DNA of 63,630 nucleotides, counting the filler, from Rhizaria sp. SCN 62-66 (taxonomy: Eukaryota): NCBI GenBank assembly GCA_001724265.1. It is 3 parts of 3 records of this genome, joined end to end, with 100 filler letters (N's around TTAATTAATTAA, not from the genome) between each part and the next. Parts side by side here need not be neighbours in the genome. Positions count along the whole stretch, not along the records: positions 1 to 21,539 come from MEDY01000448.1; positions 21,640 to 42,716 come from MEDY01000450.1; positions 42,817 to 63,630 come from MEDY01000453.1. One strand, 5' to 3'. This document shows, piece by piece, positions 1 to 63,630 of this stretch. The position numbers were made by a program, and so were the translations under genes. Within the stretch, counting starts at the first letter, position 1. The number at the start of each line of letters is the position of its first letter. The notes beneath the pieces were generated by a model that was given only the letters and a program-made list of their open reading frames with translations, searched no databases and was not told where the DNA came from.

Positions 1-2
1 AC

Positions 3-3000
3 GCCGCCGTGTCCGCCGCGGCGGCGCTGCGCGCGCAGCTGTCGGCGTCGCAAGGCGAGGTTGCGGCCGTGAGTGGCGCGCTGTCAGACGCACAGCGCGC
101 GGTGGCGGCCGCGGACCGGCTTGTGACGCGCCACGCGGGTGCCGTGCGCGCGGCCAACACCGACGCCGCGGCGGGCCGCGCCGAGGCCGCGAGCGCACGC
201 GCGGGCGCCGAGACCGCGCGGCGGCGGCTGCACCGCGCGCGCGTGCTGGTTCGGTACCAGGCGCACGTGCTGGCGCGCGCACAGTAGCAGGGCTTCGTGT
301 TTGCGCTGCCCACGGGCGTGCCGCCCAAGGTCCTGGGCGTCGATCCCGTGGGCTTCGCCGGCGGGCCCGCCGCGGTCGAGACGCTCGCCACGGCCGCGGG
401 CGTTGCTGCCGCCGGCCCGCCCGCCGCGGGCTCGGAGCGCGCCGCCGTGGCCGCGCTTGTGGGCCCGCCCGCGCCGCCCGTCTGGCTCGACGACTCCGCG
501 TCCGAGCCCGAGGACGAGGACGCAGACGCCGCAGACGCCACCAGCGAGGGCGGCGACGCCGCGCTCGGCGAGACCGAGGCTGAGCGCGAGGTACGCCGCC
601 GGCAAACCGCCGAGTCGCGGCTCGCGGCGCGCGAGGCGCAAGCCACGGCGCACGTGCTCACCTTCCGCCACTTCGTCCCAGGCCGCGGCATCAGCGGCGG
701 CGGTGCTGGTGCGGCAGCGGCGGTGGTAAGCTTTGACGACGACACGTCACCCGCGTGGTCGCCAGCCGTGTTCGCGCCCTCGCGCGGGTCCTCGGCCGTG
801 AGCGTTGCCGTCCCCACGGCCGCGCGCCGCACCGTGTCGGGCACCTCGATTGGGCCCGCGTTCCCCGGCGACGTCTCGCCGCCCGGCGGAGCACACGCCG
901 CAGCCGCGCGCACGCGCAACGAGCTCGAAGCCATCGCCAGCGGCACGCGCAGGCCCGCGCCCGCCGTCGCAACAACACCCATCTACGCCGTCGCAAACGC
1001 CGCGCCGCGCGGGGCCGCCGCGTCGCACGCGCACGCGCACTCAGTCGGCGCCGGTGGCGGCGTTGGCGGTGGCGGGTGGGGCGAGAGCGTGCACCCGTCG
1101 GTGGCGACGGCGCTGTCGCTGCACCCGGGGCTGCGGCGCGTAGGCTGGCAGCTCGAGATGCTGCACTCCGTGGCGGGCCACTCGCTGCCCGACAAGGCGC
1201 TCGAGCGTCTCGCCAAGGCTGCGCTGGCCGCGCCCACGCTGCCCGCGCTGCTCGCGCAGCTCTCGCAGCAGATGCGCGCGCGCGCGGCCCGCGCTGTGCG
1301 GCTGGAGCTCACGCCCGCGGTGCGCGCCTAGATGTGGCGCCGCGCGATGGACGAGGTGCGCGACGAGCTGTGGACGCTGCGCGCGACGCTGCTGCTCGCG
1401 CTGCGCCGGGAGCTCCGCGCCGAAGTCGCCGCCGCGCTGCGCGAGGAGCTGCGCCCCGCCGTGCAGGCTGAGCTGCGCCGCGCGCATGCTCCGCAGGTCC
1501 TGGCTGAGCTGGGCGACGGCGTGCGCCTTGCCTGGGTTGCCGCGCTGCGCGCCAACGTGCACGCTGAGGTGCTCAGCGAGGCCACGGCGGCGGCAGAGCG
1601 CTCGGCCACGCTCGCCGCGCAGGCCCGCGTGGACGCGCGCGTCGAGGCCGCCGCGCTGGCGCAGGCGCGCGCGCAGGTCTCGGACGCCAAGGTTGCAGCG
1701 TTGCGCGCGCTGCTGTGGCGCGAGTCGCAGGCGCGGCTTTCGGCCGAGGTCGAGGCTCGCGTGGCGGCCGCGCGCGCCGAGATGGCCGCGCAGCGCGCCG
1801 CTGAAGACGCCGCTCTGGCCGAGGACGCCGCCAGCCTGGGGCTCGGGCTCGCGGGCGACGCGCCGGTCGACGCCGACGCCGCGGCGCAGTCGCGCGCCAG
1901 CGGGCCCTCGGGGATCGGCCTGGAGCAGGGGTAGGGGCCGGGATCGGGGCTGGGCGGCTCGGGCGCCGCGGTTACGCTGCGCCGCGCGTGGGCCCGCGGC
2001 GTCGAGACGGGCCAGAAGCGCGCCGCAGACGCGATCTCGGCGGCCGAGGCCGCGGCGGCGGCGGCGCGGCACGAGTCGTGGGCGCTGCGCAAGGAACTGC
2101 TGCGCGTCGGTGCGCTCAAGGCCGCCGAGGGCTCCGCGGAGGCCGCGCCGGGGCTGCTCACGCGGCCCATGTCCGGTAACCGACACCAGCGCCCGCCGCG
2201 CGCGCTCGCGGCCGCGCTGGGCGTCGACGCGCGCGATATCAGTCCGCCACCGCGCGGTGGCGGAGGAGGAGGACACCAAGAATGGGGGGGACAGGGGAGT
2301 CCGTCAAAATGGGACGGGGGTAACAGTATCAACAGCACCGCTGACGCAGGGGCTGTTACCCCCGCGTCGCACACATTCCCTGTCACGGCCCGTGCCCGCA
2401 CGCTCCTCGCCAAAGGAGCCGTGGCGGCTGGTCCCCCAACCCCCCGCAGCACCGCCACTCGCACTGCGCCGCCCGCGCTGCAGCGGCCGCTGACTGCGCA
2501 CCCGCTGCCTCGAGGGCGCCACGCCGGTCTGTCAGGCGAGCCAACTGTGTGGCTGGTGCCGCCGCTGCTGGTGCGCGACCCGCTCGCGCGCGGTTCTGCA
2601 GTGCTGGGCGTTCACGCGCGCCCCGGCGCCGACGCTGACGCCGCCGGCGAGGCCGCCTCCGTGGCGGCGCGGCGGCGCGCGGCTGGACTGGCCGGCGCCG
2701 GCCTGGGCGGCAGCCTTGCGTCGCCGGGGGCGCTGCTGCGCGCCGCCGAGGAGGAGGCCGCCGCCGCTGCCGCCGCGCAGACCGCTGCTGCCGCCAAGGC
2801 CGAAGCGGAGGCCGAGGCCCGCCGGCGCGCCGCCGCGGGGGCCGCGCGGCTGGTGTGCGTGGCGCACGTGCTGGGGCTCGACGCCGACGCGCTGGCCGCG
2901 GCCCAGCGCGCCGCGGGCACCGCGTCGGCCGACCTGACCGGCGTGGGCGACGAACCGGGCGCGCGCGCGGCCGCAGCGATGGCCGCGACGCAGGCCGCGT

Positions 3001-3824
3001 GGCTCGACGCACTCAGCACGGCGGCCACGGCCACGGCGCAGACCGCCGCCGCTGAGGAGGCTGCTGCAGCCGCCGCGGCCGCTGCTGCCGCTGCTGCTGC
3101 GGCGGCGGCGGCGGCAGCGGACGACGACACGGGCGACCTGGACGCTGAGGCCGCGATGGCGATGGCACAGGCAGACATGGAGGCCTCTGCGGCCGCTGCT
3201 GCGGCGACGGCAGCTGCGGAGGAGGCTGAACGTGAGCGTTAGCGCCAGCGCGCGGCGGCCGAACCTGCTGCATCTGCGGAGGCCATGGCAGCTGCACGCG
3301 CTCTCGAGCAGGCCGACGCCGAGGCCGTGCAGGCGGATGCGGAGGCCCGGGCAATGGCGGAAACGGCTGCGGCTGCTGAGCGAGAGGCCGACGCGCGGAT
3401 GGCTGAGGAAACGGCCCGCCTTGCTGCCGAGGCCGCTGCCGCCGCCGCTGCGGCGACGGAGGCCGAGGCCGCCGCCGCCCTACAACGGGAGGCGGAGGCC
3501 GCCGCCGCTGCCGCCGCAGCTGCCGCAGCTGCTGAGCTCGAGCACAGCCGACTGCAGGCCGCGGCCGAGCAGGAGGCTGCCGATGCTGCGGCGGCGGCAG
3601 CTGCAGCGCTTGCCGCTGAGACTGCGGCTGCCGCGGACCAGGCCTCGGGGCTCGCGGGGCTTCTGCACGCGCACGTCAAGACGGCGGTGTTGCTGAGCGA
3701 CGCGCTCGCGCCCACAGTTGTCGTCGCGCTCCAGCCCGAGCCCTAGCTCCCCGCGGCCGGCAGCGTCGCGCCGCCGGGTGCGAGCCGCGCCTTACCGGCC
3801 GCCGCCGCGAGCGACGACTTGGCC

Positions 3825-3863
<39 letters not shown>

Positions 3864-4640
3864 GCGGCGGCGACGGCGGCGCAGGGCAACGACGGCGGTC
3901 CGACGGCGCTGGCGGCAGCGGCGGGGCTGACGCGGGCGCCGCCGCTGCTGCGCGGACTGCTGGTGCACACGCGGCAGCGGCGCGCGGCGACGCAGCGCGC
4001 GGCAGCCGTGCTGGCGCAGCAGGCGGCGCAGGGTGTGCTTGCGGGCGGCGCGCCCATCACGCCTGGTGCGCGCGCGGACATGATTGCCACGCAGGCGCGC
4101 GCGCTGCATCTGCCCTTCGCGCTCGCGGTCAACCGCCCCACGCGTGACCCTCCCGCTCTGCGCGTACACAGTCACGGCCAACCGCAGTCCCAGCCAGCCT
4201 TTGCAGCTGCGACGGCGACGGCGCCGACGAGGGCGGCAGCGCGCAGCCACGAGAAGCTTGGCGCACCGCTGGAGCTTTCGACCCACCTCATCGCGCCCGC
4301 CGCTCCGCCCGCGCACACAGGCGCGGTAGCGGCGGCGGTGACCCCGCTCTTTGCCCGCGCCGGCGCGGGCACGAGCGCGGAGCTGGGCCTGGTTGTGGGC
4401 CGCGTGGGCCGAGCGGGGCACGCAGGACCCGGCGGCAGCACCGTGCGCCGCGGGCGCCGGCCGGCGAGCGCGAGCGCGGAACTTGGCTCGGCCGGCAGCG
4501 AGAGCTTGAGCGCGGAGCTGGCGCGGGCGGGGGCCGGGGCTTAGGTTGGGGCCGACGCTGCGCGGGGAGCAGGCGCGCCGCAGCTCGGGGCGGTGGTAGG
4601 TGCCGCGACGCGGTTGCACCCCTTCAGCGGCTACCGATGA
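3..4640 (+). CDS. 5'-truncated large Ala-rich/coiled-coil hypothetical protein (>1540 aa) with 6 in-frame TAG codons
   Basis: Track ORFs 9-287, 297-1331, 1332-1934, 2169-3242, 3285-3746 and 3819-4544 share one frame. They are separated only by TAG (285, 1329, 1932, 3240, 3744, 4542); I translated the joins and found no other stop. The frame ends at TGA 4638-4640, where GC content drops sharply. It is open at the left edge. Confidence 0.8.
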
Positions 4641-5376
4641 TTGACATTTACAGCAAGGTTAACATTACACCACACCTTTACTTACTACGTAGCACTACTA
4701 GAATACAGTTTTTTTCATATCAGTTTTTTTTATCTTTCAATTCTAATGCTCGTTCAAACATAATACAAAAATGTGATAAGTAATCAGCCATTGGATATAG
4801 TCAGTAATAGAATTCCCGGGTTTCAAATACTGACTATATGCATTGATTTAACCTTTAGCTTGCTGTGAATGTGCGAAAATGAGTCAAAATAACGCGCAAA
4901 TGATAATGCACTTTATGCACTTTTTCAACAGTCCCTCCAACTCCAGGTTGGTCGGAGCCCTCCATGTGTCAAACGGATGTGACACTCTTCAAAAACGTGT
5001 TCAGGTTGAAGGGACATGTTGTTGCATGGAGAAATGCAATTTAGAAGCACATTTCACTTATCTTTTTCCGTATAATTATATAATAAGATAGCCTGAATCA
5101 TGGTTGGAGAGGATGAATTCGGCTGGACAATGTTGTCTTTTGAATCGTGCGGAGATTTGATGCGTCTGTCCTGAAATGGCGTTGATTGACGTAAAGACTG
5201 GATGACTAAGGCAAATACCTTAGCTCATCTACGAAGTAGTGGGTGTTAGACACGACTTGTGTGTTTTGTTCCGAAATGTCGAGTATTGAGGGCTGAAATC
5301 ACTTTCCTGGCAAGCTTGTCTCACTCACTTTGCACTTTTGCTCTGTCCGTTCACGCGCTGTTCATTTGTTGTAGCA

Positions 5377-8300
5377 ATGATACGCTCTATTAACTGCGTA
5401 GTCGTTGCGCTCTTTTGTGTCGTATTGACCTTCTTCGTTAGAGGTCAAAGCCTTCCTCCAACGCTGCAGTTCGTGTCTCCTGAGCTCATCATGACGCAGA
5501 GCAATATCACATTTAAGTGGAACGAGCTGTATGGTACACCTCCTCTGACCTCCGCGTCTAAGGCGCTCAAGCTCTCGCTCAGCGGTTCGGTTCCGTATCC
5601 TAACCCAATCACAAGTGTGAGCTCAGCTGCGTCCTCCGCCGGCAACGGCATCTCCGCGACAGCCTCTATGGCCTCTAACGGCGCAATCTACATCTCATTT
5701 ACGTTTCCTTCAGACCCCCTTATGCCAAGTGGCGCAGTCTCGTTCGAGCTTATTTATGACTTCGGCACGCCCTGCAACTCTTCGCTCAACTATTCCATGG
5801 CTGCCGACGACAATCAAGCCGAGTATATCGACGAATTCGGTGTCACGCTCCCCTCGCCCACCGCCACAGTTACAATTGACGACTGCGCCGCGCCCACGCT
5901 CTTTGACGGCGTGACTCTTGCTGTCGAGCGCGTCGGTGACGACTCAAGCACTGCCGCGCTTGCGCTCTCGTGGATTGCAACAACGCCCGATCCTGTGGTG
6001 CTAGCGCCCTCCGGCGTTGGCACCGACAACGGCACGACGGACGGCAACAGCACTGCGATGTTCGTCGTGATGCTGGACGATCCTTCACAGTTCATCATCG
6101 GCGTTGACGCGGACCTTATTCCACTGCCCGGCGGTGCTTTTGCCTCGGTCACATTGCGCGACGACGGTGCGCTGCTCATCACACTCACTGGCTCGCCCGG
6201 TGAAGGCGTCATCCCCTCCTCAGCCGCGCTCGTGCTAGAACTCGAACTGGCTGCAGGCCTCCCATGCGATTCCACCGTCTCGCCATTTGTGATGTCGGCC
6301 GCGGCTGCCACGGTGCAGCTACAGGCCGCCTCTGGCTCTCAGGTCTCGCTCCAAACAAAACTCGCTTTAGGCGCCTTGTGCCCCCCATCGCTGAGCGGCA
6401 TTACTACGATGTACACCAAGCAGGGCACTGAGCCGGCAGCCGTGACGATCGCTTGGAGTGACTTCTCGAACCCTAACCAGCTGCCCATCTCACAACTGTT
6501 TTTGGTGGAGCCTACAGTTGCCGACGCAGCCATCTTTACGGGCGTTAGCGCGGTCCGCCTCTACGATGGCGTGGATCTGTCGTCAATCGTGGCGACAGCC
6601 GAGGTCGACTCTGAGACCGGAGCTATCACTGTCTCGATCACCAACAGTACCTCCATGCCGACAGTGGGCGCCATCGTTATTGAGACGTTGCTTGTCGACT
6701 CGTGTGGCTTTGACAACACGTATGTCGTGAGCGCGGCGCTTGGCTCATCGGCAGTGGCACTGTCACCAGCGGACTCCTCCTTCTCACTCACCGTGCCGGC
6801 ATGCCCAGCCGTTCTTGTGGGTGCGGGACTTGTCTCGACTGTGCAGACAGCACACAGTTTTACGTCAGTATCGTTACTTGTACAGTGGACCAACTACACA
6901 AACACAAACTAGCTCAAGCTTGATGATGTACTCAAAATTGCACCGGCTGGCAACATTTCGCTCTTCTCTGGCGTTGTGGACAGTGTCATCGACCTGGGTA
7001 CTGGAGCATTTGTGAAGGTCAAATTCATTCAAGACAAGTTTGTCATTTCGATTATTGAGAGTGAGCATCTTCCCGTCTCTGGTAGTTTTTCATTTGACGC
7101 CGTTTTGTCTCGTAACGCACCCTGCGAGACATGGGCAACGTACCAACTTACCGCGCTAATGCCATCCGAATTGGAACTACAGTTAAACGATCCCAACGAC
7201 GCACTTGCAAATGTTGTGACGGGCACCTGCCCCCAGGCTGCAGTCTTTTCCGGGGTTACTCTCACAACTTCGACAGCGCCGGGTAACGTGTTTGGCGACG
7301 CCACATTAACAATTAGCTGGGCCGGGTTTAGCAACGACTATGGCTACATTTTGGAGTCTGTATTTGTTGTGACGGGTGCAGGTGCAAAATTTTTCACGAA
7401 GCTTGACATCTCACCGACTGAGCTCGCAGCTGACCTGACAGCAAGCGTTGCGCACAATTCCAGCGGCGACCTTACAGTGACCTTTTCGGGCAACGGTGCA
7501 GTCCCGCCGAGTGGCAGTTTTGTCATTGCAGCTATTGTGGATACAAGCGTTCCTTGCAACTCAGTCGTTACTCTTACACTTGACTCTGCTTCTCCCTCGC
7601 TTGTGAGCGTTGTCAACGGCGCCACTGGATCACCCTTGTCGGCCACATTTGAGGCTGAGCCTTGCCCCGCGATTTTCTACGGCGTTTCCATGTCCGCCAC
7701 TGCGAGCGGTGATCTTGCTTTTAACTGGACAAACTACCTCAACCTTGGCGCGCTCCCGATTACCAACTTCACTTTTATGGTTGATACTTTGCCCAACGTG
7801 ATTGACGAAGTCTCTCTACCCTTAGAGCTAAACGCAGTTGCCGGGTCCATTACCTGGACCAGTAACACGACGTTTGTTGTGCACATTATTACGCCGGCAG
7901 CGGATATTCCTGGCACTGGCTCGTTTATTTTTAAAGTGGCATATTCGGCGTGGGCCCTGCAGTGCGCGGTGCCTGCCCCAGAGTGGTTATATGTGGCTGT
8001 AGGGGCGCCCATGACCACCTCACCAGCACCCACCCTGAAAACCACACTTTCTATCTGCGACGGCCGCACCGCACCCGAGCTTGGTGGTGTGACAATCAAG
8101 TCTGTTGCAAACCAGAGCAACCCGCTTGAGACGATTGCGTTTAACATTAGCTGGTCGCAATTCACGCCTAGTGGCGATGCCTCGCTGGGTCTTGTCTTTG
8201 AGCTCGGTGTTGACGCCGCTGGTCAAGATTACTTTGATGGCGTAGCATCGCTTACTGGTAATTTTGACACTGCCAGCTCGGGTACCACGGTCTTATATGA

Positions 8301-11300
8301 GGCAGGCGTGTTTAAAGTTTTTTTCACGGCAAAAACTCTCCCTGACACAGGTTTCATTTTGCTTTCGCCGCGGTTCGTAGCCCCCACTCCGTGCAGCGTC
8401 TCAGCAGAGGTTGAGCTGGCACCTTACACCGCTGTCATTATTTCATCAGCATCGACGCCACTTACCGCTACTGTGTTGTTTGCGACCTGTCTTGTCACCT
8501 TTACAGACCTTGTGATTAGCGTACAGGCGCCGCAGTACACGGCAAATGAGCGTGTTCAGCTGGCGTGGTCGGACTTCACAAACACTGCGAATGTCACCGG
8601 AGTTCCTCTGCTTGCTGTGACCACCAATGCCGCTTCCAGCAACTTTCCAACTCCAGAGCCGCAAAGCGTGCTTGTAATCGATGATAATACTGGTCTTTCT
8701 GTGCCTGGTGCGACCGCAATGCTGACATTTGATGCCGCAACTGACGTGCTTAGCATTGCATTTAGCGGTCCGACGCCGTCACACGGCAGCATCTTTTTTG
8801 CGCCCGTGCTGTCTGTAGACGCTGCGTGCGGCGCATCCACTCTTCTAACAGTGTCTGTGCCTAACGCGCTTGTGTCCGCGATTACTGGCAATAACTCGAC
8901 TCTTGGCGCTGAGTACGTCATTGGCTCTTGCTCGCAGCTTACCGGACTTGAGGTCGCTTACAGTAACGGCAACGACGAGTATGCGTTCAAGCTTTCGTGG
9001 AGTACATTTACTGCAGGCACAGCGCATTCCGCTGAGGTCTTAATTTTGCTTACTGGCAACAATTCAGCGGCGATTTTTGTCCCGGGTGACCTGGCTAACA
9101 TTACTGTTGCTTCAGCTGCTGACGGGGAGCCCGTCAGCGACGTCGTTGTGACAGCAACATTGTCGAGTACCAACCTCGTTACTATTTCTGTTGCCGGACT
9201 ACTGCCCACGGAAGGCTCAATTGTTCTCCCGCTGGAACTTACAACATCGCCAGCTCATGTGTGCAACGCATCAGTAACGTACTCGCTAAGCGCCGCAGAC
9301 ACAAACACCGTGACTGTAACTCTTTCATCAGAATCGACGACTGTGACGGCGAATCCCGTGCAATGTTTGTACAACTGGGTTTGCAACAGCTCCTCTGGTG
9401 CCGCCTGTAGCGATAACGCGCCCAATCAATACTCTGCATGCTCCACGACATGCGGCAACGGCACTCAACACAACTCGCCTGAGTGCGGTGAATGGGTGAT
9501 GGGCGAGTACTTTGGTACGACAACAACTACAAGTTTTTGCTATCAGGCTGAGCCATCTTCTACTCTTGCTTGCACTGACTGGACGTGTCCACAAGCCTTC
9601 TGGGCATGCAACACGCCCAACACTCCTATTGCGTACCTGGAGCCGTGCAGCAATGATGATGGCCAGTTTGGATTTGAATGCCCGGCCTCCGACATTGGCT
9701 GCAAAGAGGGGTCGGCGCCAATGCGTGAAGTTCTCTGCTTAAGCAACCCAGTAAACCCCACAGTTCTCACAACTAACTGCCCTGTTGCGCGCATTGGTCC
9801 CGCACCCGCCAATCAATCCTCCACAACCTGTCCGCCTCAAGTGGGCATGTGCGAAGTCGACTTCACCGCTGGGTGCTACTCTGACGACGACAACACGCCG
9901 GTGTATTGTGCAGCTGCGGGCGAGCCAGTACCGGAGAGGCTTGGCCGATGCGTTGGCCCTGACGGTTTACCTCGGTCAATTTCGCTGTGCCAGGATGCTG
10001 GGCTAAGTTTAACAAAGTCGTGCTCTACTCTACCCCCTTGCGGCACAGCAGTCTCGTGGCAGCATACGTCAACCTCGGGATGTCTCCAAAACAGCAAAAA
10101 CAATAGTTGCCTTTCTTTTATTGAGTACGGCTTTAAGTGTGGCTATATTGCGAACAATAATACCACCGTGGAGGTGCCTGAATACTTGTGCGCAGATAAG
10201 TTGACACCTACACCGTATGTGCCGTGCGATACTGCGATCGTTTGTCAGGCTGGGCATGGCTCATGCACTAACTTTGAGCCACGCGTTGTCGGCGAGTACA
10301 TTTTTACAAACATCTCTGCCTCGTGCACGTGTCTTCCTGGCTTTGGCGGTGACGGCTGTGAAGTCGCAGCTACTGTCGCCAATGCGACAATGGGCCCGAT
10401 TCCCAATGCCGAGTTCGAGGGCGCGCTCGTTAAGTGGACCTCCAATCTGCCCAACCGTATTGCTGTTGTGGTCTATGACACGCGCGCGCTTACTTTACCC
10501 ATCACTGTTGGCTATGTCAACGCCAACATTCAAGAATACTCCTTGAATGCTTTCCTCTCTGACTTGCTGCCGGGCACCTATGTGGCCGAGCTATGGGTTC
10601 ACAAGTCGTTCATTGTGTCAGTATCTGGATGGTTTACTGTCACTCCCGACCGATGCAACAACCTCTGCAGCTTGCGCGGCGTGTGTGACCCGTTGGCCAA
10701 TGACGGGAGTGGTGGATGCAAGTGCCTGAACGGCTTTTCTGGCTCACTGTGTACAGAGTCGCCCTGCCTTACCATTGACTGCTACTTGCCGAATGTGAAC
10801 CTTAGCAACCCGAAGGCACAGTTCACCAACAGCGTGTGCTATTTAGATGCCCTAGAGCAGGCTTCGTGCCTCTGCGACTACAACGCAATTGGCGAAAGCC
10901 TCTTTAAGGACAAACGTTGCATTGAGCCTCTCGCAGGTTGCCCGGGCGTTACGTGCTACAACGGCGGCATTCCCGGTAGTTCTGTCGTCAACGGCATTGC
11001 TACATGCTCGGGCAGTTGTGTTTGCCCCTCTAACTCGAATTACAATGGGACTCAATGCAATGACTGTGCCATCCAGTGCAACTCTGCTGGTACCGCGCAC
11101 AGCAGCGGCTGCGGCTCTTGCGCGTGCCGCGGTGGCTTCGCAGGCCCGCTCTGCAACTGTCGCTACGCAACCTTAAAGCTGCTCTTTCCCAGCGCTACAG
11201 CGCCCTGGTTTTACAATAATTCCACGAGCTCCTCCACACTTGCGCAGCAAATTAGGTCATTTGAGCGCAGTCTAATGCGTGAGGTGCGTCATGCAATGAG

Positions 11301-13689: not shown

Positions 13690-14606
13690 TAGGGCGGTGT
13701 TGTGTGGCAGGTTCGAAGAGGAGTTACGTTAATCACGCTGGACAAAGAGAGTTTTGCAACGATGAGACACGGTTGAAAAGAAGAGAAGGGCTCGGTCTGG
13801 GTGGAAAGATTGAGACATGTAGCGGGTGTATATGACGTATGTGAGATAATTTGAGCAGATACCAGCAGTGCAGCGCCTTAGCCACTCTTGAATACAGCTG
13901 GGATGCATTCGATGATGTTCGATCTAAGGCGCCCCTGGTTGATACGGAAAGTATCGCGGCGTGATTTTCATGTTCTGACCACTGCTCGGACTTGAGGGGT
14001 AAGATGAAGATCTACGCTACTGGAGTCCATGGATGTAGACTTGAACCATTGTAACAAGTTGTTTAGTGCAGAAAATGTGGTTGATTACATGTAGAACTTG
14101 ATCTATATGGAGGTAGACCCGACTTAGTGGTCTAGCCGAGAGAATGAAACATGTGCTACAAAGACCCTCACCAAGAACTTCTCCCACGCAACACAGTGAC
14201 GCAAGTCAGAAATGAAATTACATAACAGGCGTGACCGTGTATGACAAAATTTGCACAAAGTATCAAATCGCGCACTGTCGATTGCAATGAGTGATGTTAA
14301 CCTGGCCAAAGCTGGCCTTCGGGACCCTCTCTCGCCACCACAAGCCAGCCAGCCCGCCAGCCGCCGCCCGTTGGGTCATAACCGTTGGGGAGCCGCTCGG
14401 CCTGTTTTTGTCCCCGTTTTTTGCGGCCTACTGAGACGTCTATTTGAAACATGGTTGATTTCATGGTGCATATTGCTATTTTAATTCTATTTCTAATTTG
14501 GTTAATCTATGTATGACGTTTTTGTTCGACTTTTCGACATGCGAACCACCTGCACGGCTGCCCGCTCACCTCCGCTGTTCGTTGCTTCTTTGTGTCCGCT
14601 CTACAG

Positions 14607-48022: not shown

Positions 48023-48055
<33 letters not shown>

Positions 48056-52630: not shown

Positions 52631-53661
52631 TTACTTTTTGGTGGTGGCGCACATCTTCTCAAGGTTCTTGAAGTAGCGGATGGTGCGGACGCGGCACTCG
52701 AGCGTGGCGTCATCGTCGAGCACCAGCAGCGCGCTCTTGTGCATCTGCAGCACCGACATCGTGTACATGTGGTTCACGCCGAGCTCGATGCACTTCATCA
52801 CGGCGTCGGCCTTGCCGATGCCGGTGGTAGCGACGACGACTTCGCGCGCGTCCATGACGGTCCCGACGCCCACCGTGAGCGCCATCGTGGGCACGTTCGA
52901 CACGTCGTCGCCGAAGAAGCGCGAGTTGGCAACAATCGTCTCGTAGGCGAGCGTCTTGATGCGCGTGCGCGAGGTGAGCGAAGAGCCGGGCTCGTTGAAG
53001 GCGATGTGGCCGTCGGAGCCCAGGCCGGCTAAGAAGAGCTCGATGCCGCCGAAGCGCGCGATCGCGGCCTCGTACTCGCGGCACTCCTGCTCCAGGTCCT
53101 CCGCCTCGCCGTTGAGAATGTGCACGTTGGCGGGCACAATGTCGATGTGCTTGAAGAGGTGCTGCCACATGAAGGTGTGGTAGCTCTGCTCGTGGTCGCG
53201 AGGCAGACCGACATACTCGTCCATGTTGAACGTCACCACGTGCTTGAAGGAGAGCTCACCGGCCTGCGGGAGCAAATGTGTAAAGTACAACGAAAAGAAG
53301 GCACCATGTTGCAGAGGTTAGCAGAGTTATATATCATGCGTGAGATGTGTTGCGGTGCAGGAAGGTGTAGCGATGAGAGATTATGAAGTGACGCCAGCGG
53401 TGCCGAGAACGAGATTTTGGTGGTTTTAGGTGGGAGCTGAAGGAATAAAAACAAAAGATTATTGTAGACAAGAGTTGATTGTAGACGAACCTTGCAGTAC
53501 TCGACGAGCTTCTTGTAGATGGGGATGGGAGTGGAGCCCGTGGGAAGACCGAGCACGAACGGGCGCTCCTCAGTGGGAGCGAATGCATGAATGCGGTTCT
53601 TGATGTGCTCCGCAACATACAGAGCGACATCGGGCGCAACTTCACGAATGATGACACGCAT
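52631..53661 (-). CDS. GNPDA: Glucosamine-6-phosphate deaminase (NagB/GNPDA), 267 aa, 2 exons
   Basis: Exons 53661-53491 and 53263-52631; intron GTTCGT...CAG. Motifs FVLGLPTGSTP, VVTFNMDEYVGL, GLGSDGHIAFNEPGSSL.SRTR, VPTMALTVGVGT. Ends TAA. Confidence 0.96.
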
Positions 53662-54000: not shown

Positions 54001-55383
54001 TCACATGCGGCAGACGTAGCTGTTCGCGCGCGAGAGGTAGCGCACCCAGCGCTCCATCTCGTAGCCCTGCTGCGTGGCGGTGCGCAGGTAGACGACGCGG
54101 AGCCGCGAGGCCGAGTACATGGGCACCTCGAAGTGCATCGAGATGGGCCCAACTTCCTTGCGCACGGCCGCGCCTGCCGCGGCCGAGAGCGTCACGCGGC
54201 ACCGGATCAGGTGCTCCTGCGCGCCGTCGAAGCGCTTGATGTACCAGCGCAGCACCTTGGCCTTGTCGTCGTACTCGGCGACCTGGTCCTTGGGCGCGCC
54301 GCTGCCGCCGTCGCGGCTGCCAGGCACGGGCACGTTGCCCAGCTCGGCGACGACCGAGGTCGCCGTGCGCGGCAGCGGGATCAGCACCACGACGTTGGTG
54401 CCGTAGTTGGCCTCGGGGATGTCGGCGCGGACCTTGATCGCGAGCTCGATCTTGTGCGGCGACGCCAGCTCGAAGAAGGGGAACACGCGGAACGGGGGCC
54501 GGAACTCGCCCGTCACGCGGTAGTTCATCGCCACAAACTCGCCGTCAGGCGGCACCAGCGTCAGCACGCGCTGTGACTCCCAATCAGAGAGCCGCACGCA
54601 CTCGTGGAAGTTGCAGTCGTCGAGCTCCACGGCGTGTGCGCCAGCGTGCGCCGGCCGCTCAGAGCCGTCGCCGAGCACGACCAGGTCCTCGTTCAGCGCC
54701 AGCCGCAGCTCGGGGTTCCCGCCCAGGTAGGACTTGACCTGGATAGTCCCGTCCACGGCCTGGTTCAGCACGTGCCCCGCCGAGTCGAAGGTGAGCGAGA
54801 GGCGCTCGAAGACGTCGACGAAGACCTGGTTCTTCTGCCGGTCGCGCGTGCGGAACGTGATGGGCTTGTCGACCGCAGAGGACTGGATGGTCTTGCTCGC
54901 GCTGCTAAAGACGGCGGGCAGCTTGAGCCCGCCACGCGTCTCGGGCACGGCGTTGGCCACGGGCGCGGGGTCGTTGAAGATGAAGGCCTTGAGCGACTCG
55001 GTGGAGCAGGTCTGCGGGTAGCCCCAGTCGAAGATCTCGTCGAGCAGCTCGTAGATGAGCGTGAAGTTGGAGCGCACCGACTCCTCCGTGAGCACGCCAC
55101 AATAGTCCTTGAAGAGGCGCGTAATGCGCACGAGCAGCTCAATGGCTTCGGCGGGGGACTCGTTCGTGATGGTCGTCAGCACGAAGAAGAGCCCGGACTT
55201 CTTGATCCAGACGTAGTGCACGCCGTCCACGTTGAACACCGGCGGCGCCTCCTGCGCGCGCCCGTTCCAGAAGCGCACGTGACGGAAAAAGGTCTCAGCC
55301 GTGGAGCGGATCAGCTCGGAGCGGAACGAACGGAACACGATCGAGTCGCCGCGCGGGCCCAGCACGTAGAACTGAGAGAACAT
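54001..55383 (-). CDS. AP4M1: AP-4 adaptor complex medium (mu) subunit, 460 aa
   Basis: MFSQFYVLGPRGDSIVFR, FKDYCGVLTEESVRSNF.LIYELLDE..DWGYPQ, QVKSYL.GNPELRLALNEDL, LDDCNFHECV, PPDGEF.AMNYR, RWVRY...ANSYVCRM; these are mu4-type signatures. Ends TGA. Confidence 0.9.
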   Translation of the reverse strand: MFSQFYVLGPRGDSIVFRSFRSELIRSTAETFFRHVRFWNGRAQEAPPVFNVDGVHYVWIKKSGLFFVLTTITNESPAEAIELLVRITRLFKDYCGVLTEESVRSNFTLIYELLDEIFDWGYPQTCSTESLKAFIFNDPAPVANAVPETRGGLKLPAVFSSASKTIQSSAVDKPITFRTRDRQKNQVFVDVFERLSLTFDSAGHVLNQAVDGTIQVKSYLGGNPELRLALNEDLVVLGDGSERPAHAGAHAVELDDCNFHECVRLSDWESQRVLTLVPPDGEFVAMNYRVTGEFRPPFRVFPFFELASPHKIELAIKVRADIPEANYGTNVVVLIPLPRTATSVVAELGNVPVPGSRDGGSGAPKDQVAEYDDKAKVLRWYIKRFDGAQEHLIRCRVTLSAAAGAAVRKEVGPISMHFEVPMYSASRLRVVYLRTATQQGYEMERWVRYLSRANSYVCRM

Positions 55384-56124
55384 GACGCTGGCGTTACGGT
55401 CTCCTGATGTGCGTGTGCTTAGGGTTGTGTAGGTTGATACGGGTGCAGTGAGGATGGAGTGCCACAACAACAGACCAGAAAGAGGAGCTTAGGGTCGAGT
55501 AAGCGGCGTTGCTATGCCTTGACGGGAAGACGGAAAGCGAAGCAGGTCTGCAGACGGAGAATCAGCAACGAGACAGAAGACGAGAGACAAGGAGGGTGAG
55601 CACGAGGCTCGGGCGCATTGCATGTTGACGAGTTAAAACGCAAATTAAAAGAAATATCAACGCAGTATCTCGCGATACAAAGGCACTAGCACGTTGTTTG
55701 TGTCTTAGTTATTGAGATAACGCGGTAAAGAGAGAGGGAGACGTCTCCAGTCAGCAAGCTCCGACAGGGGCGAATCTTTTCTCATTGATCGACGCGAGGA
55801 TCGGCAGTGGCGGCAACGGGAATTTACTAAGATATTGTGCACATAACGTCCAAGCGACGAATCATCACACACAGGTATCAGCCGATATACAGCACGCATA
55901 ATCCGGATGCGAAATTTAGCTGCACACGCGAAACAGAGACGGCATTTTTTGCGAACCACCTCGTGGTAGCGCCAGAAAGTTGATTCGTGGTTGGCCAGGA
56001 TATTGCCTTCGCCATCTCGTTTTTCCCTTCGTCAACAGTCGTTTTACAGCGTTTTTTACGACCTTTAACACTTTTTATCTTTTTATTTTATTTTACACCC
56101 GCCCAATTTTGCGTTAACCAGAGC

Positions 56125-59100
56125 ATGAGCAAAGGAAAGAAAGGAGGCCCCATTTCGCTCTCCATGTCGCTGGGCGAGGAGCAGGTCTTCGACCCCGATG
56201 CGGGCCGCTTCATCGCTGCGCAGCCTGTTGCCAAGAAGCCTGCTGCTGCTGAGGGGCCCAAGTTTGGCCCCGCGCAGACCACGGGCGCCGCGGCCCCCGT
56301 GGTGATGCCCGCAGCAGAGTCCTCCCGCTCGCCGCCAGCGACCGCGACGACAGGCAAGCAGCCAGGCGCAGCAGCAGCAGCAGCTGCCAAGCCTGCTGCT
56401 GCTGCGCCGAAGCTTACCCCGGCCGAGGCTGCAGCCGCCGCGGCCCGCGCCGCGCCCGCGCCCGCTACTTCTAGGCCCCTCCGCGGCAATCACAACAACA
56501 AGCTCCACGGCCACGGCGCCAGCGACAACGACGAGGACAACGACGACGACAACGACGAGGGCGCGAGCGCGGGCGTCTCCACCGCCGCTGCCGCCGCCGC
56601 CGCCTTCCCCGCCGCGCCCGAACTCCTCGTGGCGGCGCCCTAGACCGCGCCGGAGCCCGACTTCGAGCCTGGGCCGGATCCCGACGCGCACATCGTGTTC
56701 GAGGTCGACGAGATGACTGCCAAGGCGCTTGCGCTCGAGCGCCGCTACGCGCGCAAGGCCGGCGCGCGCGGGGGCGCCAAGACTGCCGCCGCATTACCCG
56801 CGTCCGCCGCGTTAGTCTCGGAGGACGGCGGCACCGAGATCGTTGTCGTGCGCAGCAGCACCCGTTCGCGCTCGCGACCCCGCGGCACCGGCGTCCGGCC
56901 CGACAGTGACGACGACGACGACGACGACGGCGGCGGGCGCGGGCGCGGGCGCGCCGGGAAGGCCGGCAAGGACGATAAAGACGACGACGATGAGATGATG
57001 CGCAAGTTCACCGTCGTGTCAAACATCGAGGGCCGCTCTGGCGCCACGCTCGTCGTCGGCAGCGCCAGTAACAACAATGGCGGCAAAAGCACTGACAGCT
57101 CGAGCAGTGCGAGTGCTGCGCCTGCTGCGCCCTCGACTGCGACGGCTGCGCCCAAGAGCAAAGCCGAGGCAAAGGCTGAGGCCAAGGCTGCCGCGAAGGC
57201 CGAGGCCGAGGCCGCTGCCGCCGCCAAGGCTGAGGCCAAGGCCAAGGCCAAGACCGACGCCGAGGTCGATGCCCGCGCCAAGGCCGCGGCGGCGCGGGTG
57301 GCGGCGGACCGGCGCGAGTCAGAGGCCCGCATTGCGGCCGCCGCCAAGGCCGCCGCTGCGAAGCACCAGCAGCATCAGCTCGAGCTCCAGGGTAAGGGCA
57401 AAGGCAGCGCCAGCAGCACCAGCAGCACTGGCAAGGGCGGCAGCGGCAAGGTGAAGCACAGCTCTGCGCTGGGCTCCGGCTCCGACTCGGACTCCGAGGC
57501 TGGCGCTGGCCACCGGCGCGGCAACGCTGGCACTGGCCGGGGCAACGTCGCCGTCGCCGTCGCTGTCGCCGCTACTAACGACGGCGACGATGATGATGAC
57601 GATGATGACGACGACGACGGGCCTTTCTTGGACTTTGACGACGACGGAGGCCGCCGCCCCGCCTCCTCCAAGCCCGCTGCAGCCAAGGCCGGCGCGAAGC
57701 AGCCCGCCGCCTCCGCGACTGCGACCGCTGCGGCTGCAAAGCCCAAGACGAACACTACCAAGTCCACCGTCTCGGCGGCGACCGCGAGTGCGAATGGCAG
57801 CGCCAGCAGTTCCCGCGGCGACTCCCGCGGCGACGCCGCCACTGGCCCCGCCACCGCCTCCGGTTCGCGCGGCGACGGCGTGCGCTTCGGCGAGGCGCAG
57901 ACGGTCAGATTCGCGAAGGACGCGCCCCCCGCCGAGGTGGGCGCCGCCGCCGCCGCCGCCGCCGCCACCGCGTCCGCCACAGCGACGAGCTCGACCAAGA
58001 CTAGAGTGGGCGATAGCAGCCCCGCCGCGACCAAGACCCCGGCCACGACCACGTCTGCTACCGTCCCCAAGTCCGCAATCAAGCCCACGCCCGCGCCCGC
58101 GAAGCCCAAGGCGAAGAAGAAGAAGGGCTGGTTCTGCGGGCTCTGTGCGGGCGGCGCCGACGATGACGACGACAAGGCCTCCGTCTCAGCCGCCGCGGGC
58201 GCGGAGGGCGCCGCCGAGGGCGCGGCAGACGGCGTGGGCATGCAGCAGCGGCGCCCCCGCCCCGACACTATGCGCGGCACGGAGACGGAGCTGGCGCTGG
58301 AGCTGGAGGTACAGGCCGTGGCGGCGACGCGCGGGGACGCGGCCGCGCGCGCCGCTCAGTCCCGCGAGCAGGCGCGCGCCGAGGCGCTGGCGCGCGCGGC
58401 GGACCCCCGCGCGCGCGCCGCCGTTGCGCTGCACCACCCTGACGCGGCGCTGAACCGCATCGACCTGGGCGCGGACGACGACGACGACGACGGCGACGGC
58501 GGCGACGACGACAATGACCGGAAGGAGATGCGGGTAACCGTGGGCATCGAGCTGCCCGCGGCTGAGGCAGACAAGGAGAGCGCGGCGGCCGCGGCGGCGG
58601 CGGCGGCCGCGGCCGCCGAGGCCAGCGACCCCCTGACGAAGCCAAAGCCAGTTCCCGAGCCGGAGCCCGCGCCCGCCGCCGCTGCGCCCGCGCCTGCGGC
58701 CGTCGCGGCGGGCGCGGGGCTGTCTCGGCTGGCGGGCCTGCTGGAGGGCCGCGCCACCGCCGCCGAGGCTGAGGTGCGCGCCGCGCTCGAGGCCGCGCGC
58801 GCGGCCGAGGAGCGCCGCCGCCTGGCCGAGGCCGACGCCGCCGCGCGCGCTGCTGGCGCCGACGCCGCGCCCGCCTTTACGGCCGCGCTCGACGCCGCCG
58901 CGGCGGCCGAACGCGACGGGGAGCTCGAGCTCACCGATCGTGGGCAAAGTGACAGTGGGCAGGGTGACCGTGAGCACGGTGACCGTGGGCAAGGTCAGGG
59001 TGACGGTGGGGGTGAGGGGACCGAGTTCGAGCTGGCCGTCGTGTCGCGCCGCGGTGGCAAGCGTCGCAATACTGCTGGCGGCGACGACGACGACAACGAT

Positions 59101-61005
59101 GGCGAGGACGCCGAAAGCGCCGAAGCGGCCGCCGCGCGCCGCGCCGCCGCCGTCGCCGCTGCGGCGGCCGCTGCCGAGGCTGCGGAGGCCGCCGCCGCCG
59201 AGGCCGTCGCCGCGGAGGCCGCGCGCGCCGCGGCGGACGCCTGGCGCGCCGAGGTGAACGCAGCGCGACGCGAGCTGGGGCTGGCGATGCTGACCGACGC
59301 GCAGCTCGACACGGCTTTCACGGACACGTTCGAGCGCGCGGGCGGGCTGTGGAGCCTCTACGCGTCGCCCACGGCGCCCATTCCCGCCGCGAACAGCAGC
59401 GGCAGGAGCGAGAGCAAGAGCAAGAGCAAGGGCGAGGCCGAGAGCAAGAGCGAGGACGCCGAGGCCGCGGCCCCGGTGTCGCTCTTCGATCTCGTCGCCG
59501 CCACTGAACAACAGCAGCAGCAGCAGCAGGAGCAGGAGCAGGAGCAGAAGCAGAAGCAGAAGCGCGTCGGCGCGACCACCGTGGCGACTGAGGCCGCGGC
59601 AGAGCACCCTCTGTCCGAGGAGGAGGAGGCGGCGGGGCGCGCGCGGGAGCAGCGCCGCGAGATCAAGCGCGCCGCGGCCGCCGCCGAGGCCGCGGTCGCC
59701 GCCGCGGAGGCCGAGGCCGCGGCCGCCAGGACTGCCCGCAAGGCCGCGCGTAAGGCGGCGCGTCTCGAGGCTCTCGCGGCCGACTCTGCCTCTGGCGCTG
59801 CGCTTGCGCCTGCGCCTGCGCCCGCGTCGGTGGCGGGCGCGGGCGTGTTGATCCCGGAGCTGGAGGGCCTGTTCGACCCCGAGGCCTTCGTCGCGCGCGC
59901 CTTCGAGGCCGACGGCTCCGTGGACCCCCTAACGCACGCCGACGCGGGCACTGGCGCTGGTGCCGCTGCTGCTGCTGCCGCTGGCACTGGGATTAACAAC
60001 GCCGATCACGTCGACGACGAGGAGGAGCAGCGGCGCCTCTTCATGTCCGGCGCCGCCGGCGTCACCGCCGGCAGCGGCGACGGGCGCACCAGGAGCAAGA
60101 AGACCGCGGGCGGCACGGCGGTCGCGTCGCGCGCGAGTTTGTTCGGGCACGACGACGAGGCCGACCGCGATGACAGCGACGGACTCTTTGGCGCCAACTC
60201 CGACGCTCACTACAACAACACTAGTGCGCGCAGCAAGCGCGAGGCTGCCGCTGCCGCTGCAACTGCAACGGACGCTGGCGCTGGCGCTGAGGGCGGTGGC
60301 GGCGAGGGGCTGAGCTCGACGGATAAGCTGCTGGAGGAGCTGGTGCGGCTGCGTGGCGAGGGCGACCTGCCCGACGTGGGCGACACCGAGAACGAGCCTC
60401 CGCTCGAGGGCGACAAGCTAGAGGTACGTCGCAGTTTATACTCGTTCGCCTATCGTTAGCAAAGCATTGATGTGGCACAAGCTGTAATGAACATATCCGA
60501 AATCGAATTACGACATATTTTGCATATATAACATACTTCTACATCTTTATATTTCTTTGCTACATTTTTATCGCTATCTCACCAAGTTGTGTTCTATCTT
60601 GTCTTGTTTTGTCTCACACCACAGGCATTCCTGGTCGACACGGTGTGGCAATGGGACGAGGGCCTGGTCTGCTTCGCCGCCAGTGGCGTGCTGCTGACCT
60701 CCTCCGCGCCCGCCCAGTCCTCTTCGTCCGCCGCGGCGGCGCAGTGCGAGTGGCGCGTGGAGGGCGCAGTGCTGCGCGTGCTGCTGGGCGCGCACGGCGT
60801 CCACGAGCTGCGGCTGGCTTTGTCCCGCCGCGAGGCAGGCGGCGTGCGTCGGTTTGACTGGCGGCCCGTGCACCTCATGCTTGTCGGCGCAGTCAGGGGC
60901 GCGGCTGAGGCCGGGAACGGCTTCCCGCACGCCTGGCTCGCGCGCAAGAGCGCGGAGCTCGGCATGGGGGCCGGCGCCGCGGCCGACGGATGCGTCATAG
61001 TGTAA
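56125..61005 (+). CDS. Large Ala/acidic low-complexity protein (~1559 aa, 2 exons, 1 in-frame TAG) with a small beta-rich, possibly PH-like, C-terminal domain
   Basis: ATG 56125. TAG 56641-56643 joins ORFs 55987-56643 and 56695-60459 in frame. Intron 60424-60624 (GTACGT...CAG) joins in frame to exon 60625-61005. Ends TAA. Confidence 0.75.
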
Positions 61006-61485: not shown

Positions 61486-63105
61486 TTAGTAGTACCTGGC
61501 CTTGACGGGCGTGACGTCGATGCGCACCGGCGGGCCGTCTTGCGCGACGGTGGCCGTGACCTGCGTGGCGCGCCCGCCCGCGCCCGCGCCCGCGCCCGTG
61601 GGCGTGCGCAGGTACGCGTTGGCCGCGGCTGAGGCGGCGGCGGACGCGGCCGAGAAGCGCGAGGACGCGGCCGACAGCGCCGCGCTCGAGGGCACGTACT
61701 GGTACGGACTCACGGCGCCGGCGGCCGAGCCCGCGGAGGACTGCATCACGGAGGCGGGCGCGCGCGAAGGGGTGCTCACGGCGCGCATGTGGGCCTTGGC
61801 CATGGCGGCGGCCGCCGCGCCCTCGGCCTCGGTGTTATCGATAACGACGTTGAGCTCGTTCTGCGCATTCTTGAGCTTGAAGCGGAGCTCGCGCAGCGCC
61901 TGCTCCGACTGGCGCGCCTTCTCGCGCAGCGCCTCGATCTCGGCCGCGCGCGCCGCCTGCAGCGACTCGAGCGCGGCCTCGTGATGCAGCTTCAGCTCCG
62001 TCACCTGCGCCGTGAGCGCCAGCTCCGCCTCGCCTGCCTGCCGCAGCGCGCGCTGCGCGTCGCCGAGCGCGCGCTTGAGCTCGTCGATGGTCTCGCCCGC
62101 CTCGGCCAGCTCGCCCGCGAGCGCGGCGCCGCGGCGCTGCTCGCGCACGCGGTCAGCCTGCTCATGCTCCAGCGCCTCGACCGTCTGCGCGCGCTGCTGC
62201 TGCGCGACACGCGTGGCCTCGCGCTGCTGCGAGAGGTCCTCGCGCAGCTGCTCGATCACGTCGCGGTGCTGCGACAGCTGCGCCGTCAGCTCCAGCTTCT
62301 CGCGGTGGTAGCCCTCAGCGTCGCGCTTCCACGCCGCAGCCTCGTCGCCGGACGTCGCAACCTGTTTCGACAGCGACGTCACGCGCGTGTTGAGCGCCGC
62401 GATCTGCGTCGTCTGCTGCTGCGACGCCAGCGTCAGCGCCTCCACCTTGGCGCGCGACTGAGCCAGCTCGCGCTGCGCGTCCGACAGCTCCGTGCGCTTC
62501 GCCTCAAGCGCGGCGAGCGTGTCCACCAGCGTCTTACGGTCGCTCGCGCGGTCCGCCTCGAGCGTGGTCACGCGCGACTGCAGCGCCTGCTTCTCGGCCA
62601 GCACCTGGCTGGCGGCGCGCTGGTCGGCAAGCCACTGCTCGCGCAGACGCGAGATCTCGCGCGTCAGGTCGTCCTGCAGGCGCTGCATCTCCAGCTGGTG
62701 CTTGTTGTTCTGCGACAGCAAGTCCTCGTGATGGCCGCGCTTGAGTTGGTCGAGCTGCTGCGTCAGGTACTGGCGGTCCGTCTGCGCCTGCACTTTGTCG
62801 CGCTCAGTCGCCTGCAGCCGCGCCTCGAGCGCCGCGTTCGCCTCGTCCAGCATCGACAGCCGGCTCTGGTACTTAAGCAAGCGCTGGTCCATCATCATGA
62901 CGCTCTGTTGCAGTGTTGAGATGGTGTTGACGGCCGCGCGGCGGTCAGAGTCAGTGGCCTTGTCGCGCGAGACCAGGAGGTCGTCCAAGTCGCGGATGCG
63001 CGAGCGCAGGCTCGAGTTGCGGTTCAGCAGCTCCTTGTTAATGCTCGCAAGGCTGGCCTGCTCGGACCGACTGAGGGCCAGAGCAGTGTCCAAATGCGGG
63101 TACAT
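61486..63105 (-). CDS. Long coiled-coil protein (at least 539 aa; an upstream exon is possible)
   Basis: Heptad-rich L/Q/E/R sequence over about 430 aa, then an Ala/Ser tail. Ends TAA. A pyrimidine tract and CAG just upstream of the ATG suggest a splice acceptor. Confidence 0.8.
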   Translation of the reverse strand: MYPHLDTALALSRSEQASLASINKELLNRNSSLRSRIRDLDDLLVSRDKATDSDRRAAVNTISTLQQSVMMMDQRLLKYQSRLSMLDEANAALEARLQATERDKVQAQTDRQYLTQQLDQLKRGHHEDLLSQNNKHQLEMQRLQDDLTREISRLREQWLADQRAASQVLAEKQALQSRVTTLEADRASDRKTLVDTLAALEAKRTELSDAQRELAQSRAKVEALTLASQQQTTQIAALNTRVTSLSKQVATSGDEAAAWKRDAEGYHREKLELTAQLSQHRDVIEQLREDLSQQREATRVAQQQRAQTVEALEHEQADRVREQRRGAALAGELAEAGETIDELKRALGDAQRALRQAGEAELALTAQVTELKLHHEAALESLQAARAAEIEALREKARQSEQALRELRFKLKNAQNELNVVIDNTEAEGAAAAAMAKAHMRAVSTPSRAPASVMQSSAGSAAGAVSPYQYVPSSAALSAASSRFSAASAAASAAANAYLRTPTGAGAGAGGRATQVTATVAQDGPPVRIDVTPVKARYY

Positions 63106-63630
63106 CTGTCTGCAAGACAGAGGCGAAACAACGACAAGGTGCGAAGGGCAGGTGAGTGTTAACGGTATTCAGACAAAGATTACAAACAAGTGGAGTGTAA
63201 ATAAGTGTTCTGAATGAGACATTAAAAATGAGAATGAATCATGTCGAGTTTTACAAAGACAAAGTATAAAATTTGCATCCGACGATGAGATGGTTGAGAA
63301 ATGTAGCATTTTTGACCTTGGCGTTTCACCCCAACGGATTCATCGCCACACTACATTGTTCTATTTCTTCTTCTTTGTCAACCACCGTCACCAATTAAGT
63401 CGCAGTCTTATTAATAGCTTAAAAACATTCATAAATAGGTGCGCGACAGCGATGTACACGCTCATATATTATATCTTATTAATTATATTAGTCGCAACTG
63501 TACTTGACACCGTTCAATTTCGTTCATATTTTGTTACCGCCGACATTCAGCATAAAATACCAAGTCTCACAGGCTCACACTGGGGCAAACACCACCCACA
63601 GCCGTTTCGGGGCGGGCATATAAAGGTGGC

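Follow-up and report, generated by a model that had tools for sequence, protein, structure and literature searches.

Changes of the nuclear genetic code outside the ciliates are known from few lineages, and those in which UAG has parted from UAA are rarer still (PMC5304391). As described by Panek et al. 2017 (PMC5304391), the cercozoan exLh (Sainouroidea), which was detected in transcriptome data of the bug Lygus hesperus, reads UAG as leucine and terminates with UAA and UGA, with 384 in-frame UAGs in 71 genes, many of them at conserved leucine sites. The same source describes the fornicate Iotanema spirale, where UAG encodes glutamine, makes up about 8% of the glutamine codons, and UAA and UGA are stops. 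Further UAG reassignments are reported for phyllopharyngean ciliates, along with a ciliate that gives UAA and UAG different meanings (PMC11687900, PMC10553269), and these cases, as presented there, illustrate that UAG can change its meaning independently of UAA. Here we describe a stretch of 63,630 bases, referred to as the window, that consists of three contigs of the assembly filed as Rhizaria sp. SCN 62-66 (GCA_001724265.1) placed end to end, and in which five long frames (g1 to g5) are interrupted by TAG and by no other stop codon. In our judgement UAG is likely a sense codon in the organism behind the window, with UAA and UGA as its terminators. A reassignment of UAG alone is a kind of change already known from exLh, Iotanema, and some ciliates, and the window probably adds a further case to it and not a new category. 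The first-pass annotation had called such a change rare and known from Iotanema, which agrees with PMC5304391, where the rhizarian with UAG as leucine is described in addition.

All 16 in-frame TAGs listed in the first-pass annotation were confirmed on the coding strand (as CTA on the plus strand in the case of minus-strand genes) at the positions collected in Table 1. Its claim that the five frames are free of internal TAA, TGA, and frameshifts is borne out by the stop counts per frame: with the terminal stop excluded, internal TAA/TAG/TGA amount to 0/6/0 in g1, 0/1/0 in g2, 0/2/0 in g3, and 0/6/0 in g4 (counted over 3-4640 and 5290-12063 on the plus strand and 22825-30000 and 39100-42036 on the minus strand). 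The off-frames each hold 18-62 TAA, 12-29 TAG, and 18-78 TGA in g2, 15-23 TAA, 6-15 TAG, and 17-48 TGA in g4, and 8-64 TGA in g3. Expected numbers were calculated for each gene from its position-specific base composition, and for 13 genes with 15,467 codons 44.7 TAA, 154.8 TAG, and 33.3 TGA would be expected in frame versus 0, 16, and 0 observed. TAG is thus strongly avoided yet tolerated (about one in 1000 codons), and TAA and TGA are kept out altogether. Fifteen gene ends without a single TAG had also been claimed, and exactly these were found, namely seven TGA (g1, SMC, g3, DnaJ, SF3a60, g47, and the AP-4 mu subunit) and eight TAA (g2, the ATG27-like gene, TIR, g33, g4, 6PGL, g5, and g61); six of the 15 belong to genes with Pfam families. 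TAG commonly accounts for some 25% of terminators, a share we assume from general knowledge, and if it applied here, 0 of 15 would have P = 0.013 in what is a small sample. In the window, coding frames tolerate UAG and no terminator uses it, and together with the homology that runs through the TAGs of g4 these counts indirectly support the interpretation, already proposed from the first look at the sequence, that UAG alone has been reassigned.

The strongest case is g4, which forms an island of 43% GC within an otherwise GC-rich contig, and where 17.1 TAA, 11.8 TAG, and 10.3 TGA were expected and 0, 6, and 0 observed (27.4 for TAA and TGA combined). It combines a signal peptide and hydrophobic segments with an intein-like domain of the Hint and LAGLIDADG type at residues ~400-975, including the two LAGLIDADG motifs, FFLGDGTL and VWQADGDS. 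Pfam gave no match for g4 at E < 0.01; in direct comparison with inteins it matches P0006 at E = 1.3e-31 and P0007 at E = 1.3e-22. When g4 is aligned to inteins P0006-P0009, the homology continues across TAG609 and TAG617 with neither a length anomaly nor extra residues relative to P0007, and g4 keeps 56 of the 56 columns that are invariant in a five-sequence alignment, including blocks located hundreds of residues past the TAGs. A block DHxDHL(I/V)(F/V)AQRA...VTKASRP is common to g4 and the inteins. Among these, P0007 resides in a DNA polymerase B and its precomputed Pfam list includes LAGLIDADG_3 and Intein_splicing, the host of P0006 carries PF16203, which we take to be the ERCC3/XPB-type domain, and the others are inserted in further proteins. 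As a negative control, the metagenomes were scanned with the intein alignment, yielding 13 loci (L001-L013) of 22-29% identity with related inteins from other organisms, which are not relatives; their longest TAA/TGA-bounded frames, 16,831 codons in total, had only 2 TAGs in frame, each at the end of its frame.

Inteins have an N-terminal Cys or Ser and a C-terminal Asn or Gln followed by Cys, Ser, or Thr, and g4 departs from this at both ends. It has Tyr where P0006-P0009 have Cys1 and it ends in ...RPIIV-C where they end in ...(V/I/S)G(N/Q)-C, i.e. it lacks the terminal G-(N/Q) that precedes the +1 Cys. An element lacking both would be unable to splice by the standard mechanism. No recognisable host protein surrounds it, unlike in the inteins, and g4 may represent a domesticated or free-standing homing-endonuclease gene, judging from its sequence. 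A search of the representative library returned 197 distant inteins and the two fragments of g4 itself, with no close paralogue among them. The g4-type intein family is widespread, with the motif CF(G/P)xxTR(V/I/L)LT ... DHxDHL(I/V)(F/V)AQRA ... VTKASRP(I/V)(V/I)G(N/Q)|C; its hosts are very different (DNA polymerase B, an XPB-type protein, an RGS protein, and others), some of them with two copies.

A second such reading frame is provided by g2, where 25.2 TAA and TGA were expected and none occurs alongside the single TAG. It possesses a signal peptide, eight copies of an unnamed ~140-aa repeat with a conserved core W-(S/T)-x-(F/Y), a Cys-rich TSP1/EGF-like region, and a C-terminal transmembrane segment, and its product is predicted to be a large secreted or membrane protein of surface type. 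TAG 6910 lies inside the third of the eight repeat units, and this unit is of normal length. The continuity of the g4 domain and the intact g2 repeat, as far as alignments can tell, indicate that translation must pass those UAGs. In protein databases, g2 is present only as a 1683-aa piece (P0134) that matches the region past its TAG; this own fragment was the sole hit in the protein collection, with no relative there and no usable match in the Atlas. Likewise, g4 appears in public proteins as pieces of 214 aa (P0136) and 269 aa (P0135), in line with the claim of the first-pass annotation that the standard code fragments genes of this organism. Of the remaining three TAG-bearing genes, g3 has 2 TAGs and 0 TAA or TGA versus 6.3 expected, g1 has 6 TAGs versus 7.0 expected and 0 TAA or TGA versus 2.2 expected, and g5 has a single TAG in its first exon. 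No Pfam family exceeded the threshold for any of the five TAG-bearing proteins, and the TSP1 match of g2 was sub-threshold.

The surroundings of the TAGs do not resemble gene ends. GC content falls sharply at real ends (0.77 -> 0.30 at the TGA of g1, 0.73 -> 0.32 at that of g47), while it stays at 0.74-0.87 on either side of the TAGs in GC-rich genes and at 0.71/0.76 around TAG 27559 in g3, and the minimum 50-nt GC within +-200 nt of 7 such TAGs was >= 0.58. A scan for coding-like frames with a stop followed by AT-rich DNA returned two TAG cases only, both from the g5 intron. One more TAG, at 33125, is in frame with g33 and located upstream of its likely start. The three contigs were alike in stop pattern and intron type. 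Separate adjacent genes on the two sides of each TAG were considered and rejected, given that there is neither an AT-rich spacer nor a GC drop at the TAGs and that the g4 domain and the g2 repeats span them. Sequencing errors were rejected as well: run contigs of two other studies carry the same letters at TAG 1329 (X4 record 17) and TAG 6910 (X2 record 11), and no differing letter was reported in run contigs at any TAG within 1-20000.

Several observations weigh against a reassignment. The conserved genes have no TAG at all, with 0 seen versus 87.8 expected in SMC, g33, SF3a60, g47, AP-4 mu, g61, TIR, and 6PGL combined (e.g. 18.3 in SMC, 20.7 in g33, and 13.5 in g47), and hence no TAG meets a conserved residue in an alignment, as the standard proof would require. 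The use of TAG is very uneven, ranging from 6 of 7.0 expected in g1 and 6 of 11.8 in g4 to 1 of 22.1 in g2; in other words, TAG comes close to neutral use in g1 and g4, and in g2, g3, and g5 it falls 10- to 20-fold short of expectation. At 78% GC, the openness of g1 is weak evidence by itself given the 2.2 TAA and TGA expected there, and GC-rich genes alone prove little, as TAG would in any case arise from 68-81% of their nonsense mutations. Much of the case depends on g4, a degenerate gene of a selfish element that has lost Cys1 and the terminal Asn/Gln of inteins. Neither ARAGORN nor Rfam detected a tRNA with a CUA anticodon in the window, where tRNA-Phe(GAA) was the only tRNA. Finally, a TAG is reached by a single RNA contig (X6 record 26, covering 1681-1947, with TAG 1932), which ends 13 nt beyond it, and retention of a TAG was scored in RNA contigs from 31 letters past the site.

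The pattern of depletion might point to an ambiguous or leaky code, in which UAG is a stop in some contexts, whereas within genes a suppressor tRNA or a near-cognate one reads it through efficiently. Such a code would be akin to the context-dependent stop/sense codes and not a clean reassignment. Ambiguous codes of the karyorelict and Condylostoma type are known, and an in-frame TAG that is ~10-fold depleted (16 of 154.8) and absent from conserved genes looks as if it were costly to decode. Against it, TAG occupies none of the 15 gene ends; moreover, six read-throughs per gene in g1 and g4 would leave almost no full-length product unless decoding were efficient, and the bases 3' of the in-frame TAGs share no common context. 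Of the alternatives to a sense UAG this one survives best, and we still regard it as unlikely.

Under the standard code, the TAG-bearing frames would have to be pseudogenes or nonsense alleles in a genome whose GC3-rich codon usage favours TAG. TAG would indeed make up a share of 0.73 of the nonsense mutations in g1, 0.43 in g2, 0.68 in g3, and 0.81 in g5, and decay would fit the lack of Pfam families in the five genes (bar the sub-threshold TSP1 match) and the loss of splicing residues from the g4 intein. In g4, however, this share is 0.28, so that six TAGs out of six have P = 5e-4, and the joint probability that 16 of 16 nonsense mutations are TAG is 1.2e-5 given the codon usage of the genes. 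Across all five genes, 8,556 codons in total, there is no frameshift, TAA, or TGA, g4 retains all of its family-invariant residues, and five dead genes among 15 would be unusual for a compact genome. A C-to-T decay of g4 resembling repeat-induced point mutation (RIP) was likewise rejected, since the values of TpA/ApT (0.75) and (CpA+TpG)/(ApC+GpT) (1.25) do not fit. Taken together, decayed genes read by the standard code seem highly improbable.

Equally little credence, and if anything less, is given to the removal of the TAGs from mature mRNA, through the splicing of introns that are very short or of a non-canonical type, or through editing, e.g. of U to C giving CAG. Real introns do exist in this intron-poor genome. 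Four were recognised, each with a GTACGT 5' site, and the three whose 3' end is defined measure 143-201 nt with a GC of 0.31-0.36 and end in CACAG, set against an exon GC3 of 0.8-0.98. The phase-0 intron of g5 (60424-60624, GAG|GTACGT...CACAG|GC, 201 nt, GC 0.36) contains TAG 60457 and TAA 60529, and an apparent in-frame TAG in DnaJ is the 3' splice site of an AT-rich intron ending in ...TTTAG. Introns as the general cause of the TAGs were rejected, as the recognised ones explain only TAG 60457 and this one in DnaJ. None of the 16 TAGs is located in or beside an AT-rich GTACGT...CACAG segment and no GTACGT occurs near those of g4, while the normal lengths of the g4 alignment and the g2 repeat unit leave little room for excised pieces. 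The RNA cover of the 16 sites is essentially nil: the polyA metatranscriptome run X6 has only short contigs here, on g1 and g2, and the uncovered parts are uninformative. Among the 15 RNA joints listed for positions 1-20000 none falls at a TAG, and 138 further joints exist. Finally, it is barely credible that the frames are open by chance and not all coding, with high GC leaving long frames and TAG, the sole stop ending in G, as the likeliest interruption: this would suit g1, where TAG is at expectation and the antisense frames are long too, and it is refuted for g2, g3, and g4 by the complete lack of the expected TAA and TGA in frames whose off-frames are full of stops.

With UAG as a sense codon, the window would represent part of the nuclear genome of a protist that is uncultured, GC-rich, and poor in introns, and that is probably a cercozoan. 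UAG would no longer serve as a terminator there, ribosomes would read it as an amino acid, and UAA and UGA would end all genes. By analogy to known cases, in the form described in PMC5304391, UAG might be decoded by a CUA-anticodon tRNA that does not read UAA, and recognition of UAG by eRF1 would be weakened. In exLh, the eRF1 position that corresponds to Leu69 of the human protein is Ala (PMC5304391). As a codon UAG would then be rare, occurring mainly in genes under weak constraint or with low GC3 and missing from the window's conserved genes.

The sequence offers few hints at the amino acid inserted. Among 21 homologues, the alignment columns that hold TAG609 and TAG617 vary, and column 617 comprises E3 T3 A2 Q2 D1 K1 and 9 gaps, none of these residues being hydrophobic. 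Across the eight repeats of g2, the TAG column shows Q, G, A, D, N, and A, one further unit being left unassigned. A neighbour-context classifier placed A, Q, and L nearly level and leaned mildly against Glu only, and its power was low, with a true Q ranked first in 10% of calibration trials. The metagenome, genome_contigs, protein, representative, and Atlas searches returned no close relative that might have revealed TAG-to-sense substitutions. Guided by known reassignments and a possible rhizarian affinity, we would tentatively put glutamine first; a residue other than glutamine or leucine appears unlikely, and leucine somewhat more so. NCBI translation table 15 has UAG as Gln with TAA and TGA as stops, and would be the formal match for the window only if the amino acid were Gln, which makes this assignment provisional.

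The closest counterpart is exLh, which resembles the window, as far as its published description goes, in having only UAG in frame, genuine stops without UAG, and, going by the AP-4 mu tree of the window, a rhizarian affiliation. Its use of UAG also differs strongly by gene class and is rarest in highly expressed genes, comparable to the uneven use seen here. The window differs in its low frequency of UAG, which spares the conserved genes it contains, and in its origin from wastewater-type metagenomes. Iotanema is similar in that the change concerns UAG only and that UAG is a sense codon of low abundance, and different in belonging to another supergroup, the Metamonada. Ciliates are set apart by a different genome architecture, whereas the window is GC-rich and its AP-4 mu protein groups with Cercozoa. 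A full-text literature search retrieved no report of this organism and no cercozoan code change beyond that in PMC5304391.

One scenario, which we offer as a possibility and consider unlikely as a whole, is that a free-living wastewater lineage resembling Cercozoa has freed UAG in an early codon capture, either independently of exLh or as part of an older or wider change in Cercozoa. UAG would have vanished from terminators and be re-entering weakly constrained genes (g1 and the selfish g4) in a near-neutral manner, while still being excluded from conserved genes. If so, the window would be a natural snapshot of a stop codon becoming a sense codon. Should the reassignment as such be true, an abundant uncultured wastewater protist would provide a new data point on stop-codon capture, perhaps at an early stage. 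It would also mean that eukaryotic bins from such metagenomes are mis-annotated and their completeness is misjudged unless the code is inferred first, as the already split proteins P0134, P0135, and P0136 illustrate.

The window appears to be part of a binned metagenomic assembly. Both of its joints (21540-21639 and 42717-42816) are artificial and of the form N44-TTAATTAATTAA-N44, which makes gene neighbourhood across them meaningless. The same DNA occurs in metagenome runs from bioreactors, wastewater, and activated sludge, with 4 runs (X1-X4) containing 0.89-1.00 of the sampled words, one of which may be its source, and the polyA metatranscriptome run contains 0.17 of them. The gene set is eukaryotic, with GC-rich exons (GC3 to 0.98 near gene ends) and AT-rich spacers and introns (Table 1). 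The model of the TIR gene may be incomplete, as GC remains high past its TAA.

Table 1. Coordinates of genes, in-frame TAGs, introns, and tRNAs in the window
Feature	Position	Strand	Remarks
g1	3..4640	+	Ala-rich, 78% GC, 5' end cut by contig start; TGA at 4638
g1 in-frame TAGs	285, 1329, 1932, 3240, 3744, 4542	+	
g2	5374..12063	+	2229 codons, in-frame TAG 6910, TAA at 12061
g3	22825..29925	-	Ala-rich, 2366 codons, TAG 27559 and 29254 (CTA on +), TGA at 22825
g4	39100..41910	-	43% GC, TAA at 39100
g4 in-frame TAGs	41758, 41587, 41278, 41272, 40210, 40186	-	
g5	56125..61005	+	exon 1 56125-60423 with TAG 56641; exon 2 60625-61005, TAA at 61003
ATG27-like membrane protein	12877..13728	-	one AT-rich intron containing TGA; ends TAA; Pfam ATG27 7.4e-07
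ATG27-like gene 5' splice site	GTACGT at 13383	-	
SMC	14517..18137	+	intronless, 1206 codons, ends TGA; Pfam SMC_N 1.1e-68, SMC_hinge 3.2e-20
TIR-domain protein (TIR)	19814..20545	-	no TAG, ends TAA; Pfam TIR_2 8.1e-22
DnaJ (Hsp40)	30656..32287	-	three exons, ends TGA; Pfam DnaJ, DnaJ_CXXCXGXG, DnaJ_C on three open reading frames (ORFs)
DnaJ intron	31852-31662	-	GTACGT...CACAG, 191 nt, GC 0.31
g33	33128..38542	+	Ala-rich ORF, 1804 codons, no coding TAG, ends TAA
tRNA-Phe(GAA), tandem	42353-42426, 42517-42590, third copy cut by contig end; region 42353..42716	-	ARAGORN, Rfam
SF3a60 intron	44495-44637	+	
SF3a60/Prp9	44638..46560	+	main exon 3' of intron 44495-44637, ends TGA; Pfam SF3a60_Prp9_C 1.4e-44
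g47	47073..52247	+	Ala-rich ORF, 1724 codons, no TAG, ends TGA
6-phosphogluconolactonase-like exon (6PGL)	52631..53317	-	no TAG, ends TAA; Pfam Glucosamine_iso 2.5e-16
AP-4 mu subunit	54001..55488	-	no TAG, ends TGA; Pfam Adap_comp_sub 6.4e-65
g61	61486..63168	-	560-codon ORF, no TAG, ends TAA

In a maximum-likelihood tree of 24 AP-4 mu sequences, none of them from a sainouroid, the window protein groups with three metagenomic relatives, the nearest of which is 80% identical over 443 columns, and this group is nested in a 98/98-supported clade together with the chlorarachniophytes Amorphochlora and Norrisiella. The AP-4 mu proteins P0011 and P0013, likewise from relatives, have 78% and 68% identity. 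The organism is probably a filosan cercozoan, an affiliation that a one-gene tree offers as a lead rather than a result. A scan of genome_contigs with AP-4 mu returned one locus of 45% identity (L014, 1-18542), which stems from an 858-kb contig filed under an Actinomycetota metagenome-assembled genome. Its eukaryotic AP-4 mu is spread over 2 kb, suggestive of introns, other eukaryote-like ORFs are found nearby, and a 793-codon frame ends in TAG. This contig is probably a misbinned or misfiled piece of a different eukaryote and no relative of the organism of the window. The tRNA-Phe(GAA) array at the end of the second contig consists of identical copies with ~90-nt spacers. Since the contig ends within the third copy, the array probably extends further and was collapsed during assembly.

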